58,011 nucleotides of DNA from Nanobdellota archaeon. Lineage in GTDB: Archaea; Nanobdellota; Nanobdellia; Woesearchaeales; JAHJEM01. Under the pieces are notes generated by a model. That model was not told where the DNA came from, made no database searches, and worked only from the letters and a program-made list of their open reading frames with translations. Of the stretch, positions 5,706 through 46,300 are shown piece by piece; position 1 is the stretch's first letter, and each line of letters starts with the position of its first letter. The translations under genes and the position numbers were made by a program. The DNA lies in contig JAHJEM010000063.1 in assembly GCA_018825425.1 (NCBI GenBank), positions 1-58,011 of the forward strand. The letters run 5' to 3'.

Positions 5706-6035
5706 ATGGTGGAAGAAAGCTCTGATTTGCTAGAGTTAGGGGGGAATATCAAGCTGGCCGGTTTCGGCACGCTGGAAAAATCCGAGCTCATAGTGGTGAA
5801 GAAGATAGTAGGTAGTTATGCCCGAAGATTCTCTGATAGACATAGTGATTTTGAAAGTCTACATGTAACTATGAAACTCACTCATAAGAGGGAGAAGTCA
5901 GAAAAATACGAGATAATGGGAAAGCTGCTCTTGGGAGGAAGTCCTAACAACTCCAGCGATGTAGATAGAAACCTTTTTTTCTGTCTAGATTCTGTTTTGA
6001 AGAAACTTGACACCACAGCTAGCAAGAAAATCTAA
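5706..6035 (+). CDS. possible HPF/RaiA (S30AE)-like ribosome-associated protein
   Basis: 109 aa. The pattern IKLAG...LHVTMKL...YEIMGKLLLGG...DRNLFFCLDSVLKKL parallels the beta-alpha-beta-beta-beta-alpha layout and the C-terminal d.y.aiD...dKL helix of bacterial HPF/YfiA. A TATA box sits 27 nt upstream. Confidence 0.4.
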   Translation: MVEESSDLLELGGNIKLAGFGTLEKSELIVVKKIVGSYARRFSDRHSDFESLHVTMKLTHKREKSEKYEIMGKLLLGGSPNNSSDVDRNLFFCLDSVLKKLDTTASKKI

Positions 6036-6583
6036 GAACGGGATATTTCTTGTTTCTTCACTCTACTTAGCGCTATAAAAATGACTTGCGGATCCCACTG
6101 CTGTTCTTTAAGAGTTTTTATGATCTCACCATCTGTCGATCCATTGGATCTCATCTCAGTTATATTGTTCTTCACAAGCTCTACAAATTCATACTGAAGT
6201 TCAAGAGACGGCGCTTTTTTAGTATTGAATATACCAAGCCGTTTTGGCACTTTTATCTTGTGTTCCTCTTTATTCTCCTTATGTTCTACTGTAAATTTCT
6301 TGTCCTTCTTAACTTCTAGTTTAGTTTTGGAAATCTTCCGATTTTCAATCTTCGTAAATACACTCTCTGCCTTGTCTTGATAGAAATTACGCCAATTCTC
6401 ATGAGCCTTCTGGAAGTGGTGTTCGTAAAAAAGAAACATAGTCATGGCCAATGTCAAAAACAGTAGTAGAAATGAATACACATCAGGCGTGAATAACTTT
6501 AGATTATCCTCTGCTGCAACAAACGCTTCAAGCAGAATGAAGTCCATAAGGAATACTGCAAGTAAAGTCACTATCTTCTTCAT
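6032..6583 (-). CDS. membrane protein, unknown function
   Basis: Two N-terminal hydrophobic helices followed by a Lys/Glu-rich soluble part. No recognisable domain. Confidence 0.55.
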   Translation of the reverse strand: MKKIVTLLAVFLMDFILLEAFVAAEDNLKLFTPDVYSFLLLFLTLAMTMFLFYEHHFQKAHENWRNFYQDKAESVFTKIENRKISKTKLEVKKDKKFTVEHKENKEEHKIKVPKRLGIFNTKKAPSLELQYEFVELVKNNITEMRSNGSTDGEIIKTLKEQQWDPQVIFIALSRVKKQEISRS

Positions 6584-7287: not shown

Positions 7288-8088
7288 ATGAAACTAAGAC
7301 TGCTATCATTAATGATTCCTTTTATATTGTACACTATTGGATGTGGGGATGGTGCTGCACCGGAGAAACAAGAAAAATCTAGACGTAAAAAAACTGTAGT
7401 TACTGAAGTAGCTGTAGTTACTAAAGTAGATCCCAAAGTGCAAGCACTGATTAATAAGGATCTTGAAGAAAGAATTGCAGTTCATAAGGAAAAGTTAGGG
7501 ATCGAGCATTTTGGATTGCCAAGAGTGGAACCCGGATTTCCAAAGGCAGGCTGTTATGTTGGAAGTGCACTTTATCATCCTGCAACCGATGCAATTTATT
7601 TAATGTCTTTTGGTGATCTACCCAACAATGGCCTGTTTTCTCCTAACAATGACGGTGATAGCACTTCAGTACATATAATTGATCATGAATTAGGCCATTT
7701 CTATGCAGATCAACTCCATGAAAGTCTCGGCAAAGGTGATTGGCCTCTGTACCCAAATGAAATGACTCTAAATACTCCAGGCATAAACATGATTAGTGAA
7801 GGAATAGCTGAATGGTTTGATAGGACTATTAATTGCAGAGAAGATGCTTTTACAGATACTGATTATCCTGAGGGTTTTGTAAACTGGTATGTTCATTCCA
7901 CTGCAGTATATGATGGCGGGATTTCTAATGTAATTTACAATGGAGGCTATCATCTAGTTAAACCAATTCTTGATAAACATGGAGCTGCTGGAATTGAGTA
8001 CTTGATTACTCACCCGCCTGTATCAGATGATTTCTCTGATCTTCCAGGATATAGAACCAAGGTTCTGGAAGTCCTTGAAGCTAAGTAA
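7288..8088 (+). CDS. secreted/lipid-anchored protein with HExxH zinc-metalloprotease motif
   Basis: Signal peptide ending in a lipobox-like YTIGC. IIDHELGHFYAD motif. Confidence 0.55.
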   Translation: MKLRLLSLMIPFILYTIGCGDGAAPEKQEKSRRKKTVVTEVAVVTKVDPKVQALINKDLEERIAVHKEKLGIEHFGLPRVEPGFPKAGCYVGSALYHPATDAIYLMSFGDLPNNGLFSPNNDGDSTSVHIIDHELGHFYADQLHESLGKGDWPLYPNEMTLNTPGINMISEGIAEWFDRTINCREDAFTDTDYPEGFVNWYVHSTAVYDGGISNVIYNGGYHLVKPILDKHGAAGIEYLITHPPVSDDFSDLPGYRTKVLEVLEAK

Positions 8089-8263: not shown

Positions 8264-8917
8264 TTAGTACGATGGTTCGATGGTTCTCACAATTGCATCG
8301 TATTGTGCTTCACCCATTATTTCTTTGTACACTTTTGGAGGCCTTGTGAAAGTAGGCGTGCCAATTTGTTGTCCTGATTCGATTGCCTTCTCCAGATTAG
8401 GTATGCCTGGTGTTTCATTACTTCCAGACACAACATATTCAAGTCTTTCAACAACCGACAAAAGAGCATTGAGCATAATTAATCTTGGTTTTTCACCGCC
8501 AGGAAATCTAACATAATATTCCTTTCTAAGAAATGCCTTATCGCTTGTTCCCACATCGAAAGGAATTTCAGCCACAACTGCAGGATGTGAATTTCCGTTG
8601 ATCTGAAATTGACTGAATTGCATATTATGATAGGGTACACCATCCATTCCACACATCTGACCATGAAACACAAGGTAGAATTGAAATGACTTATCTGATT
8701 CTTTAGGATCTAATGGAGCCCATCTATAATGTATCTCTGCATTGTCAGGACCATAAACTGTGTCAAATCTGCTTGATTGATTAGCATTCATCCTTGCAGC
8801 CCATCGATTAAGACCTGCAAGTAGACCTATTCCTTCCACTTCTCTTGGGATTCTCTTCTTGGCCCAACCATCTGGCAATTGCAATCTGAATCCCCTCTTT
8901 TTATCTTCGTGAATCAT
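8264..8917 (-). CDS. hypothetical protein
   Basis: 217-aa ORF with non-repetitive composition. No motif recognised. Confidence 0.55.
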   Translation of the reverse strand: MIHEDKKRGFRLQLPDGWAKKRIPREVEGIGLLAGLNRWAARMNANQSSRFDTVYGPDNAEIHYRWAPLDPKESDKSFQFYLVFHGQMCGMDGVPYHNMQFSQFQINGNSHPAVVAEIPFDVGTSDKAFLRKEYYVRFPGGEKPRLIMLNALLSVVERLEYVVSGSNETPGIPNLEKAIESGQQIGTPTFTRPPKVYKEIMGEAQYDAIVRTIEPSY

Positions 8918-9570: not shown

Positions 9571-10071
9571 ATGGCAACTGTTCAAAGAACCTATATTGTA
9601 CCTTTAAGAAAAGGATATGCTAATCATGCTAATTGGAAGAGATCAAAAAAAGCAGTTACCGTATTAAAATCATTTCTAGTTAGACATACTAAACGAGAAG
9701 ACATAAAGATTGGTGGCCATCTCAACGAGTATCTTTGGAAACATGGTATAAAGAATCCTCCTGGCAAAGTCAAAGTGGATGTATGGATCAAGGATGAATA
9801 TGCTGAAGCTGAACTTTCAGGTTTCTCTTTCAAAGGAGCAGCCAAGATAGAGAAGAAGAAAGAAGAAGGCGGACTAAAGGATAAGCTCGCAAAGAAGCTT
9901 GGTGTAGACAAGGAAGAAGATAAGGATAGTAAAGATAATAAAGATACCAAGAAGGAAGAGAAGACAGATAAGAAAGACGCCAAGCCTGCAAAAGAAGATA
10001 AGAAAGAAGTGAAGACAGAGAAAAAGGAAGCTAAGAAAGAAACTCCTATTAAGAAAGAAGAGAAAAAGTAG
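9571..10071 (+). CDS. rpl31e: 50S ribosomal protein eL31 with a ~75-aa Lys/Glu-rich C-terminal tail
   Basis: The N-terminal ~90 aa (YIVPLRK...IKIGGHLNEYLWKHGIKNPPGKVKVDV) is eL31. The remainder is a KKEEK-type low-complexity tail. Confidence 0.88.
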   Translation: MATVQRTYIVPLRKGYANHANWKRSKKAVTVLKSFLVRHTKREDIKIGGHLNEYLWKHGIKNPPGKVKVDVWIKDEYAEAELSGFSFKGAAKIEKKKEEGGLKDKLAKKLGVDKEEDKDSKDNKDTKKEEKTDKKDAKPAKEDKKEVKTEKKEAKKETPIKKEEKK

Positions 10072-10076
10072 TAATT

Positions 10077-13076
10077 CTATTTTGCTTGATCTAGACGTAA
10101 CCAGAATTTATAGACTGTTAGAGTATTATTTGGACCCCAATCAGCAGCGTATAATATATCATCCTTTACACAAATGTGTTCCACATCAGGTATTTCTTCT
10201 GCAGGAATTACAATTCTCCCAGGACCAAAATCCCACTTTCTGACATTGATACCTGCATTGCTTGCACTGGTACGAATATACGCATAAAAATCAGGTCCAA
10301 TTCGGAACTGCGTGTTGTGACCATCTGTCCAGTAATGAGGTCTAAAAGAGGTGATATCCGCTGAGTCAAAAAGCCTTGCTTCACTTGAAATATCATAAAT
10401 AATGTATTTTCCCTGCGGACTTGTACCGATATACCAATAAGTATCATATAGCGTTTCCAAAAAATTCACATCATCTAGATTTGCTAAAGGTGCAGCAGCC
10501 AACCATTGCCTCTGCTGATCCAAGTTTTTAGTAGTCATTACCACATTATTGCCTGCTGCATAAGCAGTATGAACTCTTAATTCCAATTCTTCATTATATA
10601 CAACGTGTTCTGTCTCTTCTTCTGTAACAATATTTGTCAGTCCCAAACTACTATGTGCATTTGCTCCAACGATGATATCTCCAATTAGACTAATGTAGTT
10701 CACACCAAATTGGGTCAATACAGTTTTTTCGTGCAAATAATTGTCGGCATTAAATATAAGATACCGATCTGCAAAAACCTCATGCTGCACTATCCAATCT
10801 TGGTTAGCAGCAATTTTTATTCCATCTCTAGGATCATCTGCATCAATTCCAAGGTCAGACTGGCGAAGTGCCAAAACTCGGGTATAATTACCTATTGTAA
10901 TCCAGGAACCTGTTACCTCCAGCGTCTCAGTTTGTGAATTCCAGGTATCAAACTGTCTAGTCATCAATAGTACATACGGCGCTTCTCTAATTGTTAACTC
11001 AAAGCTATCAGGAACGCTATTGCATGCAACAGTTATTGTTTCAGTTCCTGAATATCCATCTTCAAGATCACTCAATACCAGATCATCGTTCTGGTCAACC
11101 CATATTCGGTAATGGTCATGTGAGGATTCAACTGTGAATATAAGTTCGCTATCGATATCACTGGCAAAATTCTTGAGATTATCAATAAATGCTACCGGCG
11201 GGATATTATATTTCAATGACTCATCAGGTAAAGGAACAGTCCAAACAGCCGCATCATCCACAGAATTAACATCCACTCTTATTGTTCCTGAATTAACACC
11301 ATTACAGGATAAGGAGAAAAATTTTGTTCCAAAATAATTATCATCTCTTGCTGTTAATTTGAGATCATCATTAATAATTGATAGTATAATTTCATTCAAA
11401 TCATATTCTGTGGTAAATACCAAGGGGCTATCTGGATCAATAACATAAGATGTAACATTTTCCAATACTGTTGTTCCTGGAGTGGTATCTTCATCAAAAT
11501 TTATGGTTGGAACAACACTCCATCTTGTTGGATCATCCTCTTCATGCACAATCACAGTTATGTCAGGACTTGCAACTCCATTGCAGGCTAGATTAAAAGT
11601 TTTTGTACCATACCAATTCTCTTGTAGATATGTAAGATACAAATCATCATTTCTTATCTCAAACCTTATCTCTCCCAAATCATAAGAATCGACCAACTCC
11701 AATGGACTATCAGGATCTGAAACATACTGGCTGACATAAGTCAACAGTATTGTCTCCAGATCTAAGTCTTCTGGTAATTGTATATTAGGTAGCGGCGTCC
11801 ATACCGCAGGCTCATCATCACCAGATACTGTGAGAGTAAAACTAGTTGGAATTGTATTCCCATCCACTATTACAGTCTCTGATCCATACCAATGCGGATC
11901 TAGATTTCTTACCTTAATATGCCCTCCTTCATAATATGCCTCAAAATGAGTATTATTACTGCTTACAGAGATGTCTTTTGGAGAATCAATGTCTGTCAAG
12001 AGATCATCTATGTTTGCATATGCAACGGTCCCATCAGATGAATTCTCTGCAATCTGTTGATCTATAAGGTCATCCCAAAATGCAGTATCATCAACAGACT
12101 GCACAGTCACATTAAGATCCGGACTTGGAACTCCATTACACACAAGATTCATTGACTTGGTCCCATAATAATTGTCAAGCCTATATGTTAACACTAGAGA
12201 ATCATTATCAACAACTTCAAACTTAACCTGACCCAAATCATACTCTGTCTGGAATACTAGATCAGTATCCTCATCCTGGACAAAAGTATCCAAATCCCTT
12301 GTGACCGTGGTTCCAACTGGAGTGTCTTCGTCAAACCATATTGCAGGTTGGCCGATCCATTCAGTAGGCGAATCCTCACCTTGTACATGGAGTGTGAATG
12401 ATGCGGGTACACCATTTGCCTCCAATTCAATTTCAATATCTCCAAAGTAATTGGGTTCAAGATTAAACCCTATTAGATCATTATTGCCACGCATAAAATC
12501 TAGTCTAGGGTGATTTGGCTGGGGGATGTGAACAGGATCATCTGGATCTTCAGCTAGAAGGAACAAGTTTGGGTAAATCACGAAATTACCTGTAGTATTC
12601 TCAGCAACATACTGATCTTCTAGATCTTGCCACACTGCAGGATCATCCCTGCAAGTTATGTTTAATGCAAACTTTGCAGCAGTATCATTGGCTCTCACTT
12701 CAATTGAGTCAGTACCACAGTGTTGTGCTTCCATATTCTTCAAGTAAAGACTGCTGTCTGCAAAGAACAATGTTCCATGTTGATATGGACCTGTTGAGAA
12801 TTCAGTCTCACCATCAAAGGTGATTCTGTTCTTGATTCCAGGATATACATTGATTGAATCTGTTCCACCTATTGTTCCATCAGTCTCTTCAATAGTCTGT
12901 TCCTGCAATGGTTCCCAAACAGGAACATGCTTTGCAAATGGTTCCAAAGGCTGCTCAGAACAAGACAATGAAAGAGTTAGAATACCTGCAGCAAGCAATC
13001 CTGCACCTGCTCTAATAATATTCCTAGGACTCTTGAATGCATTTACAGTTTTTGCAACAAGTGTGTCGAGGGTCAT
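10077..13076 (-). CDS. large secreted/lipid-anchored surface protein: seven ~92-aa repeats plus a ~300-aa C-terminal domain
   Basis: Signal peptide with lipobox-like LSLSC. Recurring module DDP.VW...[DE]....G.......D.DS.L.F.....L.......L.L......YYGT......CNGV.S. No known catalytic motif. Confidence 0.8.
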   Translation of the reverse strand: MTLDTLVAKTVNAFKSPRNIIRAGAGLLAAGILTLSLSCSEQPLEPFAKHVPVWEPLQEQTIEETDGTIGGTDSINVYPGIKNRITFDGETEFSTGPYQHGTLFFADSSLYLKNMEAQHCGTDSIEVRANDTAAKFALNITCRDDPAVWQDLEDQYVAENTTGNFVIYPNLFLLAEDPDDPVHIPQPNHPRLDFMRGNNDLIGFNLEPNYFGDIEIELEANGVPASFTLHVQGEDSPTEWIGQPAIWFDEDTPVGTTVTRDLDTFVQDEDTDLVFQTEYDLGQVKFEVVDNDSLVLTYRLDNYYGTKSMNLVCNGVPSPDLNVTVQSVDDTAFWDDLIDQQIAENSSDGTVAYANIDDLLTDIDSPKDISVSSNNTHFEAYYEGGHIKVRNLDPHWYGSETVIVDGNTIPTSFTLTVSGDDEPAVWTPLPNIQLPEDLDLETILLTYVSQYVSDPDSPLELVDSYDLGEIRFEIRNDDLYLTYLQENWYGTKTFNLACNGVASPDITVIVHEEDDPTRWSVVPTINFDEDTTPGTTVLENVTSYVIDPDSPLVFTTEYDLNEIILSIINDDLKLTARDDNYFGTKFFSLSCNGVNSGTIRVDVNSVDDAAVWTVPLPDESLKYNIPPVAFIDNLKNFASDIDSELIFTVESSHDHYRIWVDQNDDLVLSDLEDGYSGTETITVACNSVPDSFELTIREAPYVLLMTRQFDTWNSQTETLEVTGSWITIGNYTRVLALRQSDLGIDADDPRDGIKIAANQDWIVQHEVFADRYLIFNADNYLHEKTVLTQFGVNYISLIGDIIVGANAHSSLGLTNIVTEEETEHVVYNEELELRVHTAYAAGNNVVMTTKNLDQQRQWLAAAPLANLDDVNFLETLYDTYWYIGTSPQGKYIIYDISSEARLFDSADITSFRPHYWTDGHNTQFRIGPDFYAYIRTSASNAGINVRKWDFGPGRIVIPAEEIPDVEHICVKDDILYAADWGPNNTLTVYKFWLRLDQAK
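10986..12929 (-). repeat. in-frame tandem domain repeats (7 x ~92 aa) inside the 999-aa surface protein
   Basis: Repeat starts at about aa 50, 144, 234, 328, 419, 513 and 606, each opening with an acidic x-D-D-P/T-x-x-W motif and ending near CNGV. Confidence 0.7.
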
Positions 13077-14686
13077 TTTGTACCTATTCCAAATTCCAAT
13101 CTAAAGCCATCCTGTCTTTCGTTTTTAGATATCTGTTCTTGAGAAAACTTCATCCAATAACCTAATTCTGCTACAACGTCAAAAGGAAGATTAAAAGCTT
13201 GCAACTGTCCCTGTGCTTTGAAAGAGATAGCTATACCTGGTTCAAATTTGGCCTCTTTAATATGGATGGGTTCAAATGTCAGATTGGGTGACAGACTATC
13301 CGGCACACTACGAGAATATTCATATTGATTGTAAGACATCAAGAATGCGATACTCCCATAGAGATTACTTCTTCCCTTAGTAATATCTGCAATTCGAATA
13401 CTACCTCCAACTAAACCAATGTATATCTCAGACTCATAAGAGTGGTCCCACTCTGCAACAGGATCGTTTAGTCTATCCCTAACAGTTATATTCTCATGGA
13501 AAGAATATGTCAGAGGTAATAAATATCCTTTTCCAAAAACAGAAAAACCATGGTTAACATTGTAATCTACTCTTAACCAAGGAATCTCATTAAAAATATC
13601 TTCCATATTAACGCTTACATTTCCATTTCCCTCTGCGATCCAAGGATGGTCAATGCTATAAGCATCTTCAATTTCAGATATGCTGGAATTAATCTGTTCA
13701 GTAAGACCTTTAAATTCCTTGTTGAAAAAACCTAAGCTTACTCCCCCAGACAATACAACTCCTTTACCTAATCTTATACCTTTTCTCGTTTGTACACCGT
13801 TATCTGGTTCATTTGGCTTCAAAACTTTAACCTCAAAAACATTATATTCAATATTGTTTTTTGAATCTCTACAAAATGCATCAAACTTATATGTTCCTGG
13901 GTCATCAGGAATGGAAATCAATGCTGTTGGATCAATACTCCTGCTTTGTTCACCAGCAGGATTAATCGCACCAAAGACATAAGGCGGCACACCTCCTGTC
14001 GCCTCCCATTCTAAAGCCACTTTTAGAGGTGCAGGACCTGAATTTGGAACAGGAGTAACTGTAAACCTCAAAGGTTTCACAATCCTCTCCAATGTAAGTG
14101 TGCCATCTATGCAATCTTCAATGTCTTGGGTATGGCCATTTCCATTCAAAATAAAACCCAGATATGTTTCAAGGCTTGAATAATCAGTTTGAACACTCAA
14201 GTTTGTTGCAGGGACATTTCTTAATTGATTGCAGTCGAGATCTCCTTTACTTACCATCATGCAGGTTCCTGTCACCGGATCACATATCTTAAGGAGTTCT
14301 TGATCCATACGATATCTTTCAAACCAACTTTCAAATTTATCTGCTTCGGATTCCAATATTGTGTGTTTCTCAATGAGTTTTTCACCTTGCATGAACAATG
14401 CAACATTGCAACTGGGCTTATATCTGACATTATCAATATCAACCTGTTCATCAATCCCTTTGTCATGAAGATAAGTAAACGCAGATCCTGCCTCACGGAA
14501 GAATTGGACCATTGATCCCCCTTCCAAGCGCCAAAGATCAGGAGCTTTTTCTTCTTGTGCCTGAGGATCGATGTAATTATCTTGTGCATTGACTGACGGA
14601 AACAAGAAAGTTCCTGCTGCGAGAAGTGTAGCGATTCCTCTTCTAATGGGTGCATTAATCCTGTTAATTTTTTCAATTAGGTTCAT
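13073..14686 (-). CDS. secreted protein with a PKD-like Ig domain and a C-terminal beta-strand-rich region
   Basis: Signal peptide ATLLAAGTFLFPSVNAQ. PKD-like stretch VTPVPNSGPAPLKVALEWEATGG. The last ~235 aa show alternating hydrophobic/aromatic strands. 4-nt ATGA overlap with the downstream gene. Confidence 0.75.
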   Translation of the reverse strand: MNLIEKINRINAPIRRGIATLLAAGTFLFPSVNAQDNYIDPQAQEEKAPDLWRLEGGSMVQFFREAGSAFTYLHDKGIDEQVDIDNVRYKPSCNVALFMQGEKLIEKHTILESEADKFESWFERYRMDQELLKICDPVTGTCMMVSKGDLDCNQLRNVPATNLSVQTDYSSLETYLGFILNGNGHTQDIEDCIDGTLTLERIVKPLRFTVTPVPNSGPAPLKVALEWEATGGVPPYVFGAINPAGEQSRSIDPTALISIPDDPGTYKFDAFCRDSKNNIEYNVFEVKVLKPNEPDNGVQTRKGIRLGKGVVLSGGVSLGFFNKEFKGLTEQINSSISEIEDAYSIDHPWIAEGNGNVSVNMEDIFNEIPWLRVDYNVNHGFSVFGKGYLLPLTYSFHENITVRDRLNDPVAEWDHSYESEIYIGLVGGSIRIADITKGRSNLYGSIAFLMSYNQYEYSRSVPDSLSPNLTFEPIHIKEAKFEPGIAISFKAQGQLQAFNLPFDVVAELGYWMKFSQEQISKNERQDGFRLEFGIGTK

Positions 14687-15780
14687 TGTTTGTCCACGTA
14701 AGCCATGATTTCCACTCCCATCTTGACATCTTCACACACCATACCTTCCAATCTCAATAAATCGACATCATTTCGTCCGATAGGATTTTTCAACTGGCAC
14801 CTTGATCCTAGGAAATGACTCATGTTAGCCTCAAATTTTCCTGCTTTGTCACCAGGTACATCCAACACAAAAGCAACCTTACCATCCTTAACATACACTC
14901 CTTTATTACACTCAGGAAAATAAAACACTGCTGACTGCCGATATTGATATGCAGGATCCCCATTATTATCCTCTCCCATTTCGTATTCTGCTTGCGATAC
15001 AGTTGTTCTATTATCAATCGGACGGAAAATAGGATAGAAAATCTCAGTAGTATAGTTATCAAGAGGAAGTCCTCCTTTGATATGCCACACTAACCCAGTC
15101 ACATAGTCAAGTGTTCCTTGAACCTGCTGATTCATTGGTGTGTTGACAACATAAACATTTACTGTCTGATAAGTATTGTAATTATTTGTGACATCAATGT
15201 CAAAATTAAAGTTATAGTTATTGATCTCAAGTATTGCCAAATTTTTCTGGACAATATCAACTATCTCTTCCCTAGACATTTTCTTTGGAATAACATGTTT
15301 TGGTCGAGGTGGTCTCATGGGGATGGAAGGTGTAGGTTCGCTTGCAGCTTCCAATGCTTGCAATGATTTACTTGACTGTCTTCCTTGTTCACAGGCCTGC
15401 AATCCATTCTTGAATGCCTGATCCATAGTTGCTTCAAAATATACTACTTGGGGAGTATCATCATCCATTGGAGCTGTGCCAGCCACACATCGTCCATTTT
15501 CAAATATTGCCAATCTGTTACCTTTGCTATCATAAACCCATGTTGCATCAATATATTTTTCTCCAAAGTCTGATGTAGAAGGGAATGAATTCAAAAAGAT
15601 CTGCTTTGTGTCTGCATTCAAGGTCCAGTCCCTACCAGGTTCTTTGCATCCAGGATCCGCAGCCACTGCTTGTACCAGAAAAGTCAGACCTAATCCGACA
15701 TTGAATAGGGTGCGTACTCCTTTTTTCACAATCCCCTCAAGCTTACTCAGGACCATTGGCAATGGACCTCCATAATTCAA
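14683..15780 (-). CDS. secreted hypothetical protein
   Basis: N-terminal hydrophobic signal (NVGLGLTFLVQAVAA). 4-nt overlap with the next gene. The start may instead be the internal Met at 15756. Confidence 0.65.
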   Translation of the reverse strand: MNYGGPLPMVLSKLEGIVKKGVRTLFNVGLGLTFLVQAVAADPGCKEPGRDWTLNADTKQIFLNSFPSTSDFGEKYIDATWVYDSKGNRLAIFENGRCVAGTAPMDDDTPQVVYFEATMDQAFKNGLQACEQGRQSSKSLQALEAASEPTPSIPMRPPRPKHVIPKKMSREEIVDIVQKNLAILEINNYNFNFDIDVTNNYNTYQTVNVYVVNTPMNQQVQGTLDYVTGLVWHIKGGLPLDNYTTEIFYPIFRPIDNRTTVSQAEYEMGEDNNGDPAYQYRQSAVFYFPECNKGVYVKDGKVAFVLDVPGDKAGKFEANMSHFLGSRCQLKNPIGRNDVDLLRLEGMVCEDVKMGVEIMAYVDKQ

Positions 15781-16531
15781 GTTCTGTCTCTAAAGTCTCC
15801 TTATACTCTGGGTCTGCTATCTTGTAGGCATATTCAAAATCATCCACAGCTCCTAGCGTATCGCCCATTGTGGCTTTGACTCTTGCCATCTTGGCGTATG
15901 CTTCGGCACTTATAGGATCCACTTGAATATATGATTCATAAGCTTCTAAAGCATCTACCAGACAATCAGGTCTTTCGAAATAAGAGTCTGCCTGGCGCAT
16001 CAATGTAGGTTTGTGAGTTGGATGTATGTCCAATATTTCTGTTGCATACTTGTCCCCTGTGTCCCATACACCTGCTGAATACGCACGATTCAGCAGGATA
16101 TACATCTCGTCCAGAATAAAATTTGGCTCATCTTCTGCTCCAATAGGTGTATTGCCAACGATATTATCTAGAGGGTCATCTGCACCAATAGGAGCTTGAT
16201 TAATAATTGTATTATTAGTTTGTTTGGGCGCAGAATCCCATTTTGCGGATTGCCTAGAAGTAGGAAAAATAATATCATTCCAAGATAAATATGCCAAGGT
16301 TCCGACAACACCTATTGTTATACCAGCAGTCCACAAAAATCTTCTCAATCTTCGTTTTTTTGGAGGTGGTAGTGTATATGGTCTACTTAGCTTTCCTGAT
16401 TTTGGAGCACTCGCAGAAGTCTTTTTATCTTTCCCAGCACCGAGAAACATCTCTTCAAGGGTTTCAGGGAGAATATTGCCTTTTCTAGAAGATCCTTTTC
16501 CACTGTTCGTATCATCTTTATTACTGCCCAA
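15743..16531 (-). CDS. single-pass membrane protein with extracytoplasmic TPR-like repeats
   Basis: Basic N-terminus (PPPKKRRLRRF), TM helix LWTAGITIGVVGTLAYLSW, and C-terminal TPR-like helices (ALEAYESYIQVDPISAEAYAKMARVKATMGD...AVDDFEYAYKIADP). Confidence 0.7.
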   Translation of the reverse strand: MGSNKDDTNSGKGSSRKGNILPETLEEMFLGAGKDKKTSASAPKSGKLSRPYTLPPPKKRRLRRFLWTAGITIGVVGTLAYLSWNDIIFPTSRQSAKWDSAPKQTNNTIINQAPIGADDPLDNIVGNTPIGAEDEPNFILDEMYILLNRAYSAGVWDTGDKYATEILDIHPTHKPTLMRQADSYFERPDCLVDALEAYESYIQVDPISAEAYAKMARVKATMGDTLGAVDDFEYAYKIADPEYKETLETELELWRSIANGPE

Positions 16532-16747
16532 TAGTATCCCCCTAAAGAGTAGTAAAAGGTTGAATTTATATATACTTTTCTAAATTTCGTCGGAAATCTT
16601 CCATGTCACATATTGGAAAAAATTGAATTCAGATTACATAAATTCACACAATTTCCCAAATCCATGTAAAAACCCAATAATAAATATATTCTACAGAATA
16701 CAAATATATATAAATGAGTTCAGTTTAACCCCACTCTGTTGACTTTA

Positions 16748-16764
16748 AGTCAACGAAGAGATAT
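16748..16764. promoter_or_regulatory. perfect 17-bp palindrome GTTGACTT-T-AAGTCAAC upstream of hsp20 (candidate operator)
   Basis: Lies between an ATATATATAAAT box (16704-16715) and the GAGGTGG Shine-Dalgarno (16774-16780) of hsp20, roughly where transcription should start. Confidence 0.45.
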
Positions 16765-16784
16765 TCAAAATCGAGGTGGTATTC

Positions 16785-45064: not shown

Positions 45065-46300
45065 TTAGACAGGAATCCTGAACACAGGAGGCCTATTTCT
45101 ATCCTCAACAGTTATATGGACGTCTTGACTGGTCTCAAGCGTTCCATCACTTGCGGTTACAGTTACGTCATACTCACCAGCATCTGAGTATGTGGTTGTA
45201 TATTCCAGATCATCCATCCATCCAATTACCCTAACTACTACATCATCTCCATCTGGATCTGTTGCAAATGCAAGAATTCTGACTGTTTCACCTTCTTCAA
45301 CTGTTATGTCAGCAATCTCTTCCAAGACTGGCGGACTATTCAATTTGCCAACTACAATCTCCACTGTCTTTTCAATGATCGCCTTACCATCACTAACTCT
45401 AACTTCTGCAGTGTATACACCATCATCACCCATCCGGGTCTCCCATTCACCATTCTCATCCAATGGATCTCCAAAGGTTATGGTAAGATCATCTGTGTCT
45501 TCATCAGTTACTTCTGGAACGACCTTGACCATTTCCCCTTCAGTCACTCTTATAGTTCTGAATTCTTTGACAACCGGCAATCTGTTCTTGTCTTCAACAA
45601 TTACTTTTATGGTTGCTTTTGTGCTTTTCTTACCATCAGAAGCTGTAACATATACCATATGTGTTCCTGCATCATTGTATCCTGTCATCTTAACTCTTGA
45701 AGCAGCCCAGCCACTATACTCAAATACAAGGTCATCACCTTCATTGTCTGTAGCGTCACATTCAATGAATAGGTCTTCTCCTTCTTTAAGAGAAATCTCC
45801 TCTGGACATGTCAGGACAGGAGCCTTGTTGCTAGAAAGCAATACCACTAATACATCTTGTGAAGTAGTATCTTTTCCATCACTTGCTGTAATAGTAACCT
45901 TATAGAATCCAGCATCTCCCTCTGTTGTTACCCAAGAACCCTTATCATCGAATGGTTCTGAAAAAGAGTATGTGATCTCATCGCCATCATAATCAATTGC
46001 TTGAGGCTTAAGTTCAATAGTCTCACCTTCTATTGCAAACTTTTTGACTGTAATATCTGCATATTCTTCAGGAATCTCAACAGTTTCAACCTTCACCTCT
46101 TCAGGCTTATTCTCTGTCTCATATACAACTTCGCCTGTGATATCTGGTACTTCAGCTGTATCTTCAGGCGTGCTGATTTGGATTATATCACTTTCAAGAA
46201 CTGAGAGATTCATAGTTGTGTTGTCTGGCTGCGGAGTGCAAGCCACTAAAGTCAATAATAAAACTACTAGTATAAGTTCTTTCTTTCCCACATTCATCAC
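45065..46300 (-). CDS. lipoprotein-like secreted protein with four cadherin/He_PIG-like Ig repeats
   Basis: Signal plus lipobox LTLVAC. Four modules of the form A.D.DGD.(L/I/V).(F/Y/V)......(Y/T)..AG.Y.V.V.ASDG......V.I.V...N..PV. Confidence 0.75.
   Translation of the reverse strand: MMNVGKKELILVVLLLTLVACTPQPDNTTMNLSVLESDIIQISTPEDTAEVPDITGEVVYETENKPEEVKVETVEIPEEYADITVKKFAIEGETIELKPQAIDYDGDEITYSFSEPFDDKGSWVTTEGDAGFYKVTITASDGKDTTSQDVLVVLLSSNKAPVLTCPEEISLKEGEDLFIECDATDNEGDDLVFEYSGWAASRVKMTGYNDAGTHMVYVTASDGKKSTKATIKVIVEDKNRLPVVKEFRTIRVTEGEMVKVVPEVTDEDTDDLTITFGDPLDENGEWETRMGDDGVYTAEVRVSDGKAIIEKTVEIVVGKLNSPPVLEEIADITVEEGETVRILAFATDPDGDDVVVRVIGWMDDLEYTTTYSDAGEYDVTVTASDGTLETSQDVHITVEDRNRPPVFRIPV

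Follow-up and report, generated by a model that had tools for sequence, protein, structure and literature searches.

The surface structures at the contacts between DPANN archaea and their hosts are molecularly uncharacterised (PMC11420986, PMC11329633), and neither paper mentions gene clusters for cadherin, PKD or tetratricopeptide repeat (TPR) proteins. In our literature search, no paper joining Woesearchaeota with cadherin was found, and none tied such a cluster to DPANN attachment organelles. The systems that can be set beside the locus described here are the large surface proteins of DPANN archaea and the candidate phyla radiation (CPR), which have been proposed for host attachment, the tandem repeats of cadherins and fibrillar adhesins, PKD-domain surface proteins, and membrane-bound TPR scaffolds. 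The locus lies at positions 10077-16531 of a 58,011-nt stretch of DNA from a Nanobdellota archaeon (contig JAHJEM010000063.1; this whole stretch is the window hereafter), and comprises four co-directional minus-strand open reading frames (ORFs) that overlap at each junction and are named G1-G4 in 5'-to-3' operon order (Table 1). Like the large DPANN and CPR proteins, the predicted products belong to a small-genome DPANN archaeon and are large, multi-domain and fast-evolving secreted proteins that contain Ig-like repeats. We propose, with about an even chance of being right, that G1-G4 form one transcription unit of four lineage-specific envelope proteins in a Woesearchaeota-like DPANN archaeon, and that G4 is a cadherin-like fibrillar-adhesin lipoprotein. 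The proposal is supported by the packing of the genes, TATA-like and Shine-Dalgarno motifs, export signals and a transmembrane (TM) segment, the TPR, PKD and repeat folds, the acidic linkers of G4, and native codon usage. Further support comes from the same repeat type in metagenomic surface proteins, and from another lipobox protein of the window, in which four cadherin-like repeats are present.

The central evidence is in G4. Its stalk consists of seven units of 91-95 aa each, phased by an invariant Trp at aa 54, 149, 240, 334, 426, 519, and 612, and is followed by a terminal domain of ~300 aa, which agrees with the seven ~92-aa repeats and the large terminal domain read from the sequence in the initial annotation. 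AlphaFold2 (AF2), run on an alignment of the internal repeats and those of the single database relative (P0002), modelled repeats 6-7 as tandem beta-sandwiches with predicted local distance difference test (pLDDT) values of 82-98. When compared with the PDB by Foldseek, the repeats gave top matches that were mostly extracellular cadherin (EC) domains, i.e., PCDH15 EC2-3 (2.7e-6), CELSR1 EC4-7, and CDH23 EC1-2 (TMt 0.49), and the modelled repeats thus show the hallmark of a cadherin-like fold, tandem Greek-key beta-sandwiches (~90-110 aa) that superpose on EC pairs. Structure models had been suggested as a check on the four proteins, and these comparisons answered it with cadherin EC pairs for G4 and a PKD domain for G3. 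The motif pattern points in the same direction. The acidic residues E16 and D34-x-D36 stand in columns matching the cadherin XEX and DXD motifs, and the linkers read R/V/G/E-D-D-x-A/P-x-W, with DD before the Trp in six of the seven, in the column of cadherin DXNDN. Moreover, the G4 repeats can be aligned in register with a classical Big_9 domain, the end of which reads VNDGP. The protein carries 167 D+E vs 54 K+R, an acidity that fits a Ca2+-binding surface protein, and the repeats may bind Ca2+ at their acidic linkers. The repeats were not detectable at the DNA level, and neither direct nor inverted DNA repeats involving 10077-16531 were found. A diversity-generating retroelement target was also considered and rejected, since no template/variable-repeat-like (TR/VR-like) repeats are present at these positions.

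Lower in the Foldseek ranking of the G4 repeats were an Aeromonas RTX-adhesin repeat, S-layer proteins, and accessory domains of GH107. In archaea, S-layer proteins evolve fast, and they are often acidic, anchored by lipid, and built as arrays of Ig-like domains; G4, possibly together with G3, could be a structural envelope or S-layer component that tiles the surface, anchored or assembled by G1 and G2, rather than an adhesin. The matches to SbsB, Sap, and an archaeal surface-layer PKD/propeller fragment would agree with such a role, and so would the position of the genes amid housekeeping genes with native codon usage; fast evolution and acidity, both typical of S-layers, fit the orphan status of G2-G4 and the charge of G4. 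We nevertheless consider this unlikely, because the S-layer matches fell far below the cadherin EC pairs (TM 0.10-0.27), the codon bias of the cluster is no stronger than that of average genes, there was no sign of lattice contacts, and an essential envelope protein should have orthologues in Woesearchaeota, none of which was found.

The adhesin reading of G4 also draws on the two ends of the protein. As for the N-terminus, a lipobox had been assigned to it, and we took as criterion a signal ending in [LVI][ASTVI][GAS]-C. The assignment stood in part, as a signal peptide with a lipobox-like motif is present, but the strict pattern is not, for LTLSLS-C39, in which S occupies -1 and L occupies -2, fits the relaxed form only. 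Lipidation would occur at C39, and similar motifs were observed in two other predicted envelope proteins of the window, LTLVAC (45065-46300) and YTIGC (7288-8088). At the opposite end, the terminal domain had no homologue among 5.8 billion proteins and no family match, and its AF2 model showed pLDDT values of 25-45, except for a three-strand meander at aa ~963-993 with 59-70. By eye, its sequence seems to resemble beta-propeller blades, and the domain is a candidate ligand-binding head. With its predicted anchor, its stalk, and this candidate head, G4 would have the anchor-stalk-head layout of a fibrillar adhesin.

The other three products are likewise predicted to be envelope or extracellular proteins. 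G1 had been described as a single-pass protein with a basic tail and TPR-like repeats, and this was confirmed. Its first 64 residues form a basic, low-complexity, disordered tail that ends in KKRRLRR, a TM helix follows, and the three 34-aa helix-turn-helix repeats fit the TPR consensus, with PDB sequence matches to consensus or engineered TPR (1.4e-25), the TPRs of OGT (7e-9), and CTPR3 (2e-5); the match to Pfam TPR_9, at 9e-5, was under the curated gathering cut-off. Since the basic tail precedes the TM helix, the positive-inside rule predicts an N-in/C-out topology with the TPRs outside the cell. G2, as expected for a secreted protein, has a predicted Sec-type signal (MVLSKLEGIVKKGVRTLFNVGLGLTFLVQAVA/ADP), followed by an N-terminal domain, a Pro-rich linker at aa ~150-175, and a C-terminal domain, with no C-terminal anchor. 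It gave no match in Pfam, NCBIfam, PDB, PADLOC, or PHROGs, and a k-mer-indexed search of the 5.8 billion proteins returned only G2 itself.

G3, in which a PKD-like domain had been proposed, was searched exhaustively with phmmer against 1.84 billion representatives. This gave 67 matches, all within aa ~195-295, and the seven scanned with Pfam were without exception PKD/PKD_4 or He_PIG repeat proteins. The segment has the GGxPPY motif, and in the AF2 model the domain reached pLDDT values of 90-96, with the remainder below 50-65. Its superposition on the PKD domain of ColG (TMt 0.84, rmsd 1.8 Å) indicates that, as modelled, this is a true PKD domain, even though Pfam HMMs gave no direct match to it. 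In the same phmmer search, no relatives were found for the parts on either side of the PKD domain, ~160 aa towards the N-terminus and ~240 aa towards the C-terminus. For the C-terminal domain, described as beta-rich in the initial annotation, the model has pLDDT below 50 and suggests three long hairpin strands at aa 372-424; as a candidate autotransporter or other membrane beta-barrel anchor, the domain had no match in Pfam, NCBIfam, or PDB. No C-terminal anchor is apparent. For the export signal, a pilin-type class III site (RRG/IATLL) was considered less likely than a Sec signal, as a short h-region is followed by VNA/Q.

Across all four proteins, Pfam, NCBIfam, PADLOC, PHROGs, and PDB sequence searches recovered the TPR signal alone. 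No link to defence systems or phages was found with PADLOC and PHROGs, and, in agreement with the initial annotation, which had recognised no catalytic motif, searches of Pfam, NCBIfam, PDB, and PADLOC gave none. An ordinary S-layer or enzyme assignment, the outcome that had been set against the proposal from the start, did not emerge either.

The genes themselves were found where they had been placed, and the ATGA start/stop overlaps are present for G2/G3 at 14683-14686 and for G3/G4 at 13073-13076. The first junction required a correction. G2 probably starts at the ATG at 15756 rather than at the upstream-most TTG, because GGAGGT (15766-15771) lies 9 nt 5' of this ATG, and the gene as called in the public record encodes 357 aa. 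G2 therefore has 357 aa in place of the 365 aa given before, and the overlap with G1, real as it is, spans 14 nt (15743-15756) and not 38 nt (15743-15780). Upstream of G1, the long intergenic region was AT-rich, as reported, and may act as a promoter. It contains a TATA-like box, TATATATAAA, at 16565-16574, i.e., at -43 from the G1 start, with a purine-rich GAAAAG just before the box, and a Shine-Dalgarno-like GGGGGA 5 nt 5' of the TTG start of G1. The four genes share the GC1>GC2>GC3 pattern of codon positions and the codon usage of other window genes, including housekeeping genes, and by this compositional measure they are real, native genes. In the case of G4, 999 open codons at 38% GC are not a product of chance. 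Recent horizontal transfer was unsupported, as both GC content and codon usage match those of the window.

Table 1. Positions of the genes and predicted features of the G1-G4 locus in the window.
Feature	Nucleotides	Residues	Strand	Basis or remark
Candidate AT-rich divergent promoter region	16532-16775		minus	GC 0.287 vs 0.383 for the window; motif positions
G1	15743-16531		minus	262 aa
G1, predicted TM helix	16280-16339	~65-84	minus	hydrophobicity
G1, three TPR units	15782-16129	135-250	minus	PDB sequence matches
G2	14683-15756		minus	357 aa; longer ORF, 14683-15780
G3	13073-14686		minus	537 aa
G3, predicted signal peptide		1-34	minus
G3, orphan N-terminal domain		~35-195	minus
G3, PKD domain	13796-14098	~197-297	minus	phmmer, AF2, Foldseek
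G3, orphan Gly/aromatic-rich C-terminal domain		~300-537	minus
G4	10077-13076		minus	999 aa
G4, predicted signal peptide with lipobox-like motif (AGILTLSLS, then C39SEQ)	12960-13076		minus	hydrophobic window aa 19-40
G4, stalk of seven tandem repeats	10977-12932	49-700	minus	repeat register, AF2, Foldseek
G4, C-terminal ~300-aa domain	10080-10976	701-999	minus	distal to the anchor

Under the proposed reading, G1-G4 would be co-transcribed from one promoter, and G4 would be the effector, a fibrillar-adhesin-like protein held at its N-terminus by a lipobox-type anchor. Cadherin-type domains are ~4.5 nm long. Taking this length for each of the seven repeats, which are probably stiffened by Ca2+ at the acidic linkers, the stalk would project the ~300-aa binding domain ~30 nm from the membrane. 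G1 would most plausibly serve as an outward TPR docking scaffold in the membrane, where it may retain or assemble the anchorless G2 and G3 beside G4. The role of such an ensemble would be adhesion to another cell, a surface, or a polymer; that the target might be a host is pure conjecture.

Next, we addressed the distribution of the locus. The S19e protein encoded in the window is 47-60% identical to S19e of metagenome-assembled genomes (MAGs) of Woesearchaeota and Nanoarchaeota, and for this reason the DPANN assignment of the host was judged correct. S19e and L31e flank the cluster on one side, and on the other side lie genes for the small heat-shock protein sHSP20, GrpE, a CxxCxxCC protein, DnaK, an HD protein, and DnaJ. 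When G2, G3, and G4 were compared with 5.8 billion clustered proteins, a search in which G1 was not included, no full-length homologue was found, and G4 retrieved itself and one repeat-level match. Positional orthology via S19e across 185,579 species genomes led to 20 related DPANN loci, and tblastn with G1-G4 revealed no homologue in any of them. The co-occurrence and synteny across DPANN that had been anticipated were thus absent (0/20), and the notion of an undescribed system was not upheld, since G2-G4 lack full-length relatives and the 20 loci lack the cluster, with G1 outside the large-database search. One of these loci, L020 (Woesearchaeota chromosome OY970338.1, 3546-11863), was informative on the site of the cluster. 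Here, the DnaJ-HD-DnaK-CxxCxxCC-GrpE-sHSP block divergently adjoins S19e-L31e with no genes between. These are the two blocks that flank G1-G4, in another relative orientation, which implies an inversion or insertion at the junction, and, because the blocks are directly adjacent in L020, the cluster sits at a rearranged, variable spot.

The same observations bear on the possibility that four unrelated surface or secreted genes became packed at a rearrangement-prone spot, under a common promoter and with no shared complex or function. The initial annotation had read the translational coupling as a sign of stoichiometric assembly, an argument that proved weak because 4-nt overlaps are routine and link sHSP/GrpE, HD/DnaJ, RpoB''/B', and other pairs within the window, some of them functionally unrelated neighbours. 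In addition, none of the four families co-occurs elsewhere (G2-G4 in the database searches, G1-G4 in the 20 loci), the two flanking blocks can be directly adjacent in a related genome, and related repeat-protein loci are mosaic, all of which such co-location would explain. On the other hand, random placement would make four envelope-directed products an unlikely coincidence, a TPR anchor that faces outward and carries no further domain requires a partner, and in three of three other loci a secreted-protein gene stands directly 5' of the repeat gene, although the signal peptide was not visible in L023. We regard mere co-location as rather improbable. The locus, as judged from its distribution, looks like a fast-evolving, lineage-private, adhesin-like one and not like a conserved new system.

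Outside the window, the G4 repeat type was found in three metagenomic contigs only, L001 by protein search and L022 and L023 by metagenome scan. Here, the repeats sit in different multi-domain surface proteins with PKD, CARDB, Big_9, or dockerin-like domains. The genes upstream of these repeat proteins showed no significant similarity to G1-G3. In four of four loci, counting that of G4, the gene directly 5' of the repeat gene encodes a secreted protein, with the caveat that in L023 it is cut by the contig end and its signal peptide is not visible. All four upstream proteins have a variable N-terminal part, and their last ~200 aa are Gly/aromatic-rich and resemble amphipathic beta-strands. Shuffle z-scores among these C-terminal regions ranged from -1.2 to 4.4, with 4.4 for G3-L023, 2.9 for L022-L023, and values below 2 for the others, which is marginal, and homology of the G3 domain with those of L001, L022, and L023 was not established. 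A match of the four-sequence profile to FtbL, a monocin tail protein, in PDB (E 0.04) was judged to be due to chance. It would be a long shot to take these regions as one divergent family, e.g., a beta-barrel or pore, that acts with the cadherin-like fibre as a hitherto unrecognised two-component device for contact or membrane insertion. If true, this device would bear on how DPANN archaea, which have no outer membrane of their own, breach host envelopes or fuse with them.

Dockerin-like matches in the repeat proteins of L022 and L023 (E 5e-4 to 5e-3, under the cut-off), and NPCBM_assoc/CARDB domains in a neighbouring protein of L023, bring up a set for capture or degradation of extracellular polymers, similar to a cellulosome or glycan complex, in which the orphan domains would bind or cleave and the PKD and cadherin-like modules would be spacers. 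Modules of these kinds often go with secreted hydrolases, and the Foldseek lists include GH107, GH158, GH5, and collagenase PKD. Nevertheless, searches of the four proteins revealed no catalytic family or motif, the glycosidase matches cover accessory Ig-like domains only, and the dockerin-like matches lie in proteins of other organisms and not in G4, so we hold this explanation to be quite improbable, more so than either an S-layer or chance co-location.

Two further observations were made on the metagenomic loci. L022 9980-11539 and L023 2026-3582 share 96.4% DNA identity from ~390 nt inside the repeat gene onward, and before this point, in the N-terminus of the repeat protein and the preceding gene, there is no similarity; such a sharp recombination breakpoint speaks for mosaic evolution of these surface-protein loci. 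In L022 (4116-6784, plus strand), a gene for a 522-aa ParA/MinD-type P-loop ATPase precedes the repeat gene set and overlaps by 4 nt another gene, whose 367-aa product is a single-pass membrane protein and has a basic tail at its N-terminus. No counterpart of this ATPase is present in the window cluster.

Several features of the neighbouring genes were also noted. The L31e gene (9571-10071, plus strand) extends past its Pfam domain (aa 4-79 of 166) by a Lys/Glu-rich C-terminal stretch of ~85 aa, has 30-nt imperfect DNA repeats at 9966-10025, and only 5 nt separate its stop codon from that of G4, which converges on it. Farther out, on the side of S19e-L31e away from the cluster, there is a run of orphan ORFs at 6032-6583, 7288-8088, and 8264-8917. 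The second of these (plus strand) encodes 266 aa, with a signal that resembles a lipobox (LYTIGCGDG), a HELGH motif, and no Pfam match, and its product may be a surface zinc metalloprotease. On the other side, a perfect palindrome, GTTGACTT-T-AAGTCAAC, is found at 16738-16754, ~21 nt 5' of the start of the sHSP20-GrpE-CxxCxxCC-DnaK operon, and may serve a heat-shock regulator as operator, although it is not a CIRCE element. Split RNA polymerase B and A subunits are encoded elsewhere in the window. A second envelope protein, of 411 aa (45065-46300, minus strand), combines a clear lipobox (LLTLVAC) with four repeats of ~80 aa that match Pfam PKD, Big_9, and Cadherin_4; in the DNA, these are partly visible as two direct copies of 56 nt at a distance of 732 nt. 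Cadherin-like proteins anchored through a lipobox thus seem to recur in this host genome.

Returning to the proposal of an adhesin operon, a number of results weigh against it. When the seven G4 repeats were scanned with the Pfam cadherin, Ig, and Big_9 models, none matched at E<=1, and the repeat profile had no match among PDB sequences. Once again, hhalign of the G4 repeats against the Big_9/Cadherin_4 repeats of the window gave a probability of 3%, with the E…DxD stretch alone aligned. In favour of a link, a P0002 repeat, 38% identical to G4 repeat 2, matched Pfam Big_9 at 8e-4, under the cut-off. Because this connection by sequence models is weak, with no Pfam match for G4 and so low an hhalign probability, the G4 repeats are called cadherin-like by modelled fold and motif pattern, and are regarded as a divergent subfamily rather than as proven members of a curated family. 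In the searches with G2-G4 and in the 20 loci, the families did not co-occur or keep synteny as those of a conserved system would, and there is thus no comparative support for a functional unit. Since gene overlaps are common in this genome, they do not imply that the four products associate physically. No binding domain, ligand, or partner was identified for the locus; the head of G4, all of G2, and two thirds of G3 had neither homologues nor a structural assignment; and N-glycosylation sequons, taken as a sign of a place on the cell surface, were not enriched in the cluster proteins.

Of the attachment or cell-contact module that had been put forward at the outset, a surface, adhesin-like module survives, on the strength of the envelope signals and of G4 with its predicted anchor-stalk-head layout and cadherin-like stalk, and a conserved system does not. 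The molecular basis on which DPANN archaea hold on to their partners is largely unknown, and loci such as G1-G4 are obvious candidates; if Woesearchaeota-like cells carried a cadherin-like fibre that depends on Ca2+, this would be a concrete and testable adhesin. Since the cluster is apparently private to one lineage, its value is limited and not generalisable, and no interpretation can yet be given for two thirds of its protein mass. Its main use may be as an example of the fast-evolving, mosaic surface-protein islands of reduced archaeal genomes, with G4 as the seed for a divergent family of cadherin-like repeats that current Pfam models miss.

A comparison with known systems places each part of the locus. 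With cadherin EC domains and the prokaryotic Cadherin_4-5 and Big_9 (PF17963) families, G4 shares tandem ~92-aa beta-sandwiches, with EC1-2 and EC2-3 pairs as best matches, and acidic residues where cadherins have XEX, DXD, LDxx(N-aromatic), and the terminal DD; it differs in its linker, DDxAxW with an invariant Trp instead of DxNDNxP, and in the narrow spread of the repeat type, restricted to four loci in public data. With RTX and other fibrillar adhesins, it has in common a predicted anchor at the N-terminus and, at the far end, a domain without repeats. G3 resembles PKD proteins (PF00801/PF18911), such as ColG and archaeal surface-layer proteins, in its GGxPPY motif, its PKD/He_PIG relatives, and its superposition on ColG, and departs from them in having one copy between two orphan domains that Pfam HMMs miss. 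G1 is similar to membrane-anchored or periplasmic TPR scaffolds, such as bacterial assembly factors of the PilF/BamD type and MamA, in its three consensus-like TPRs, single TM anchor, predicted outward orientation, and place as the first gene of an operon for exported products, whereas its homology is generic to TPRs, there is no secretin or barrel machinery, and the archaeon has a single membrane. A functional analogy with these scaffolds may be drawn by likeness alone. Collectively, the locus is an orphan case of a known kind, in which surface proteins with Ig/cadherin repeats are accompanied by accessory secreted ones, here in an archaeon with a reduced genome.

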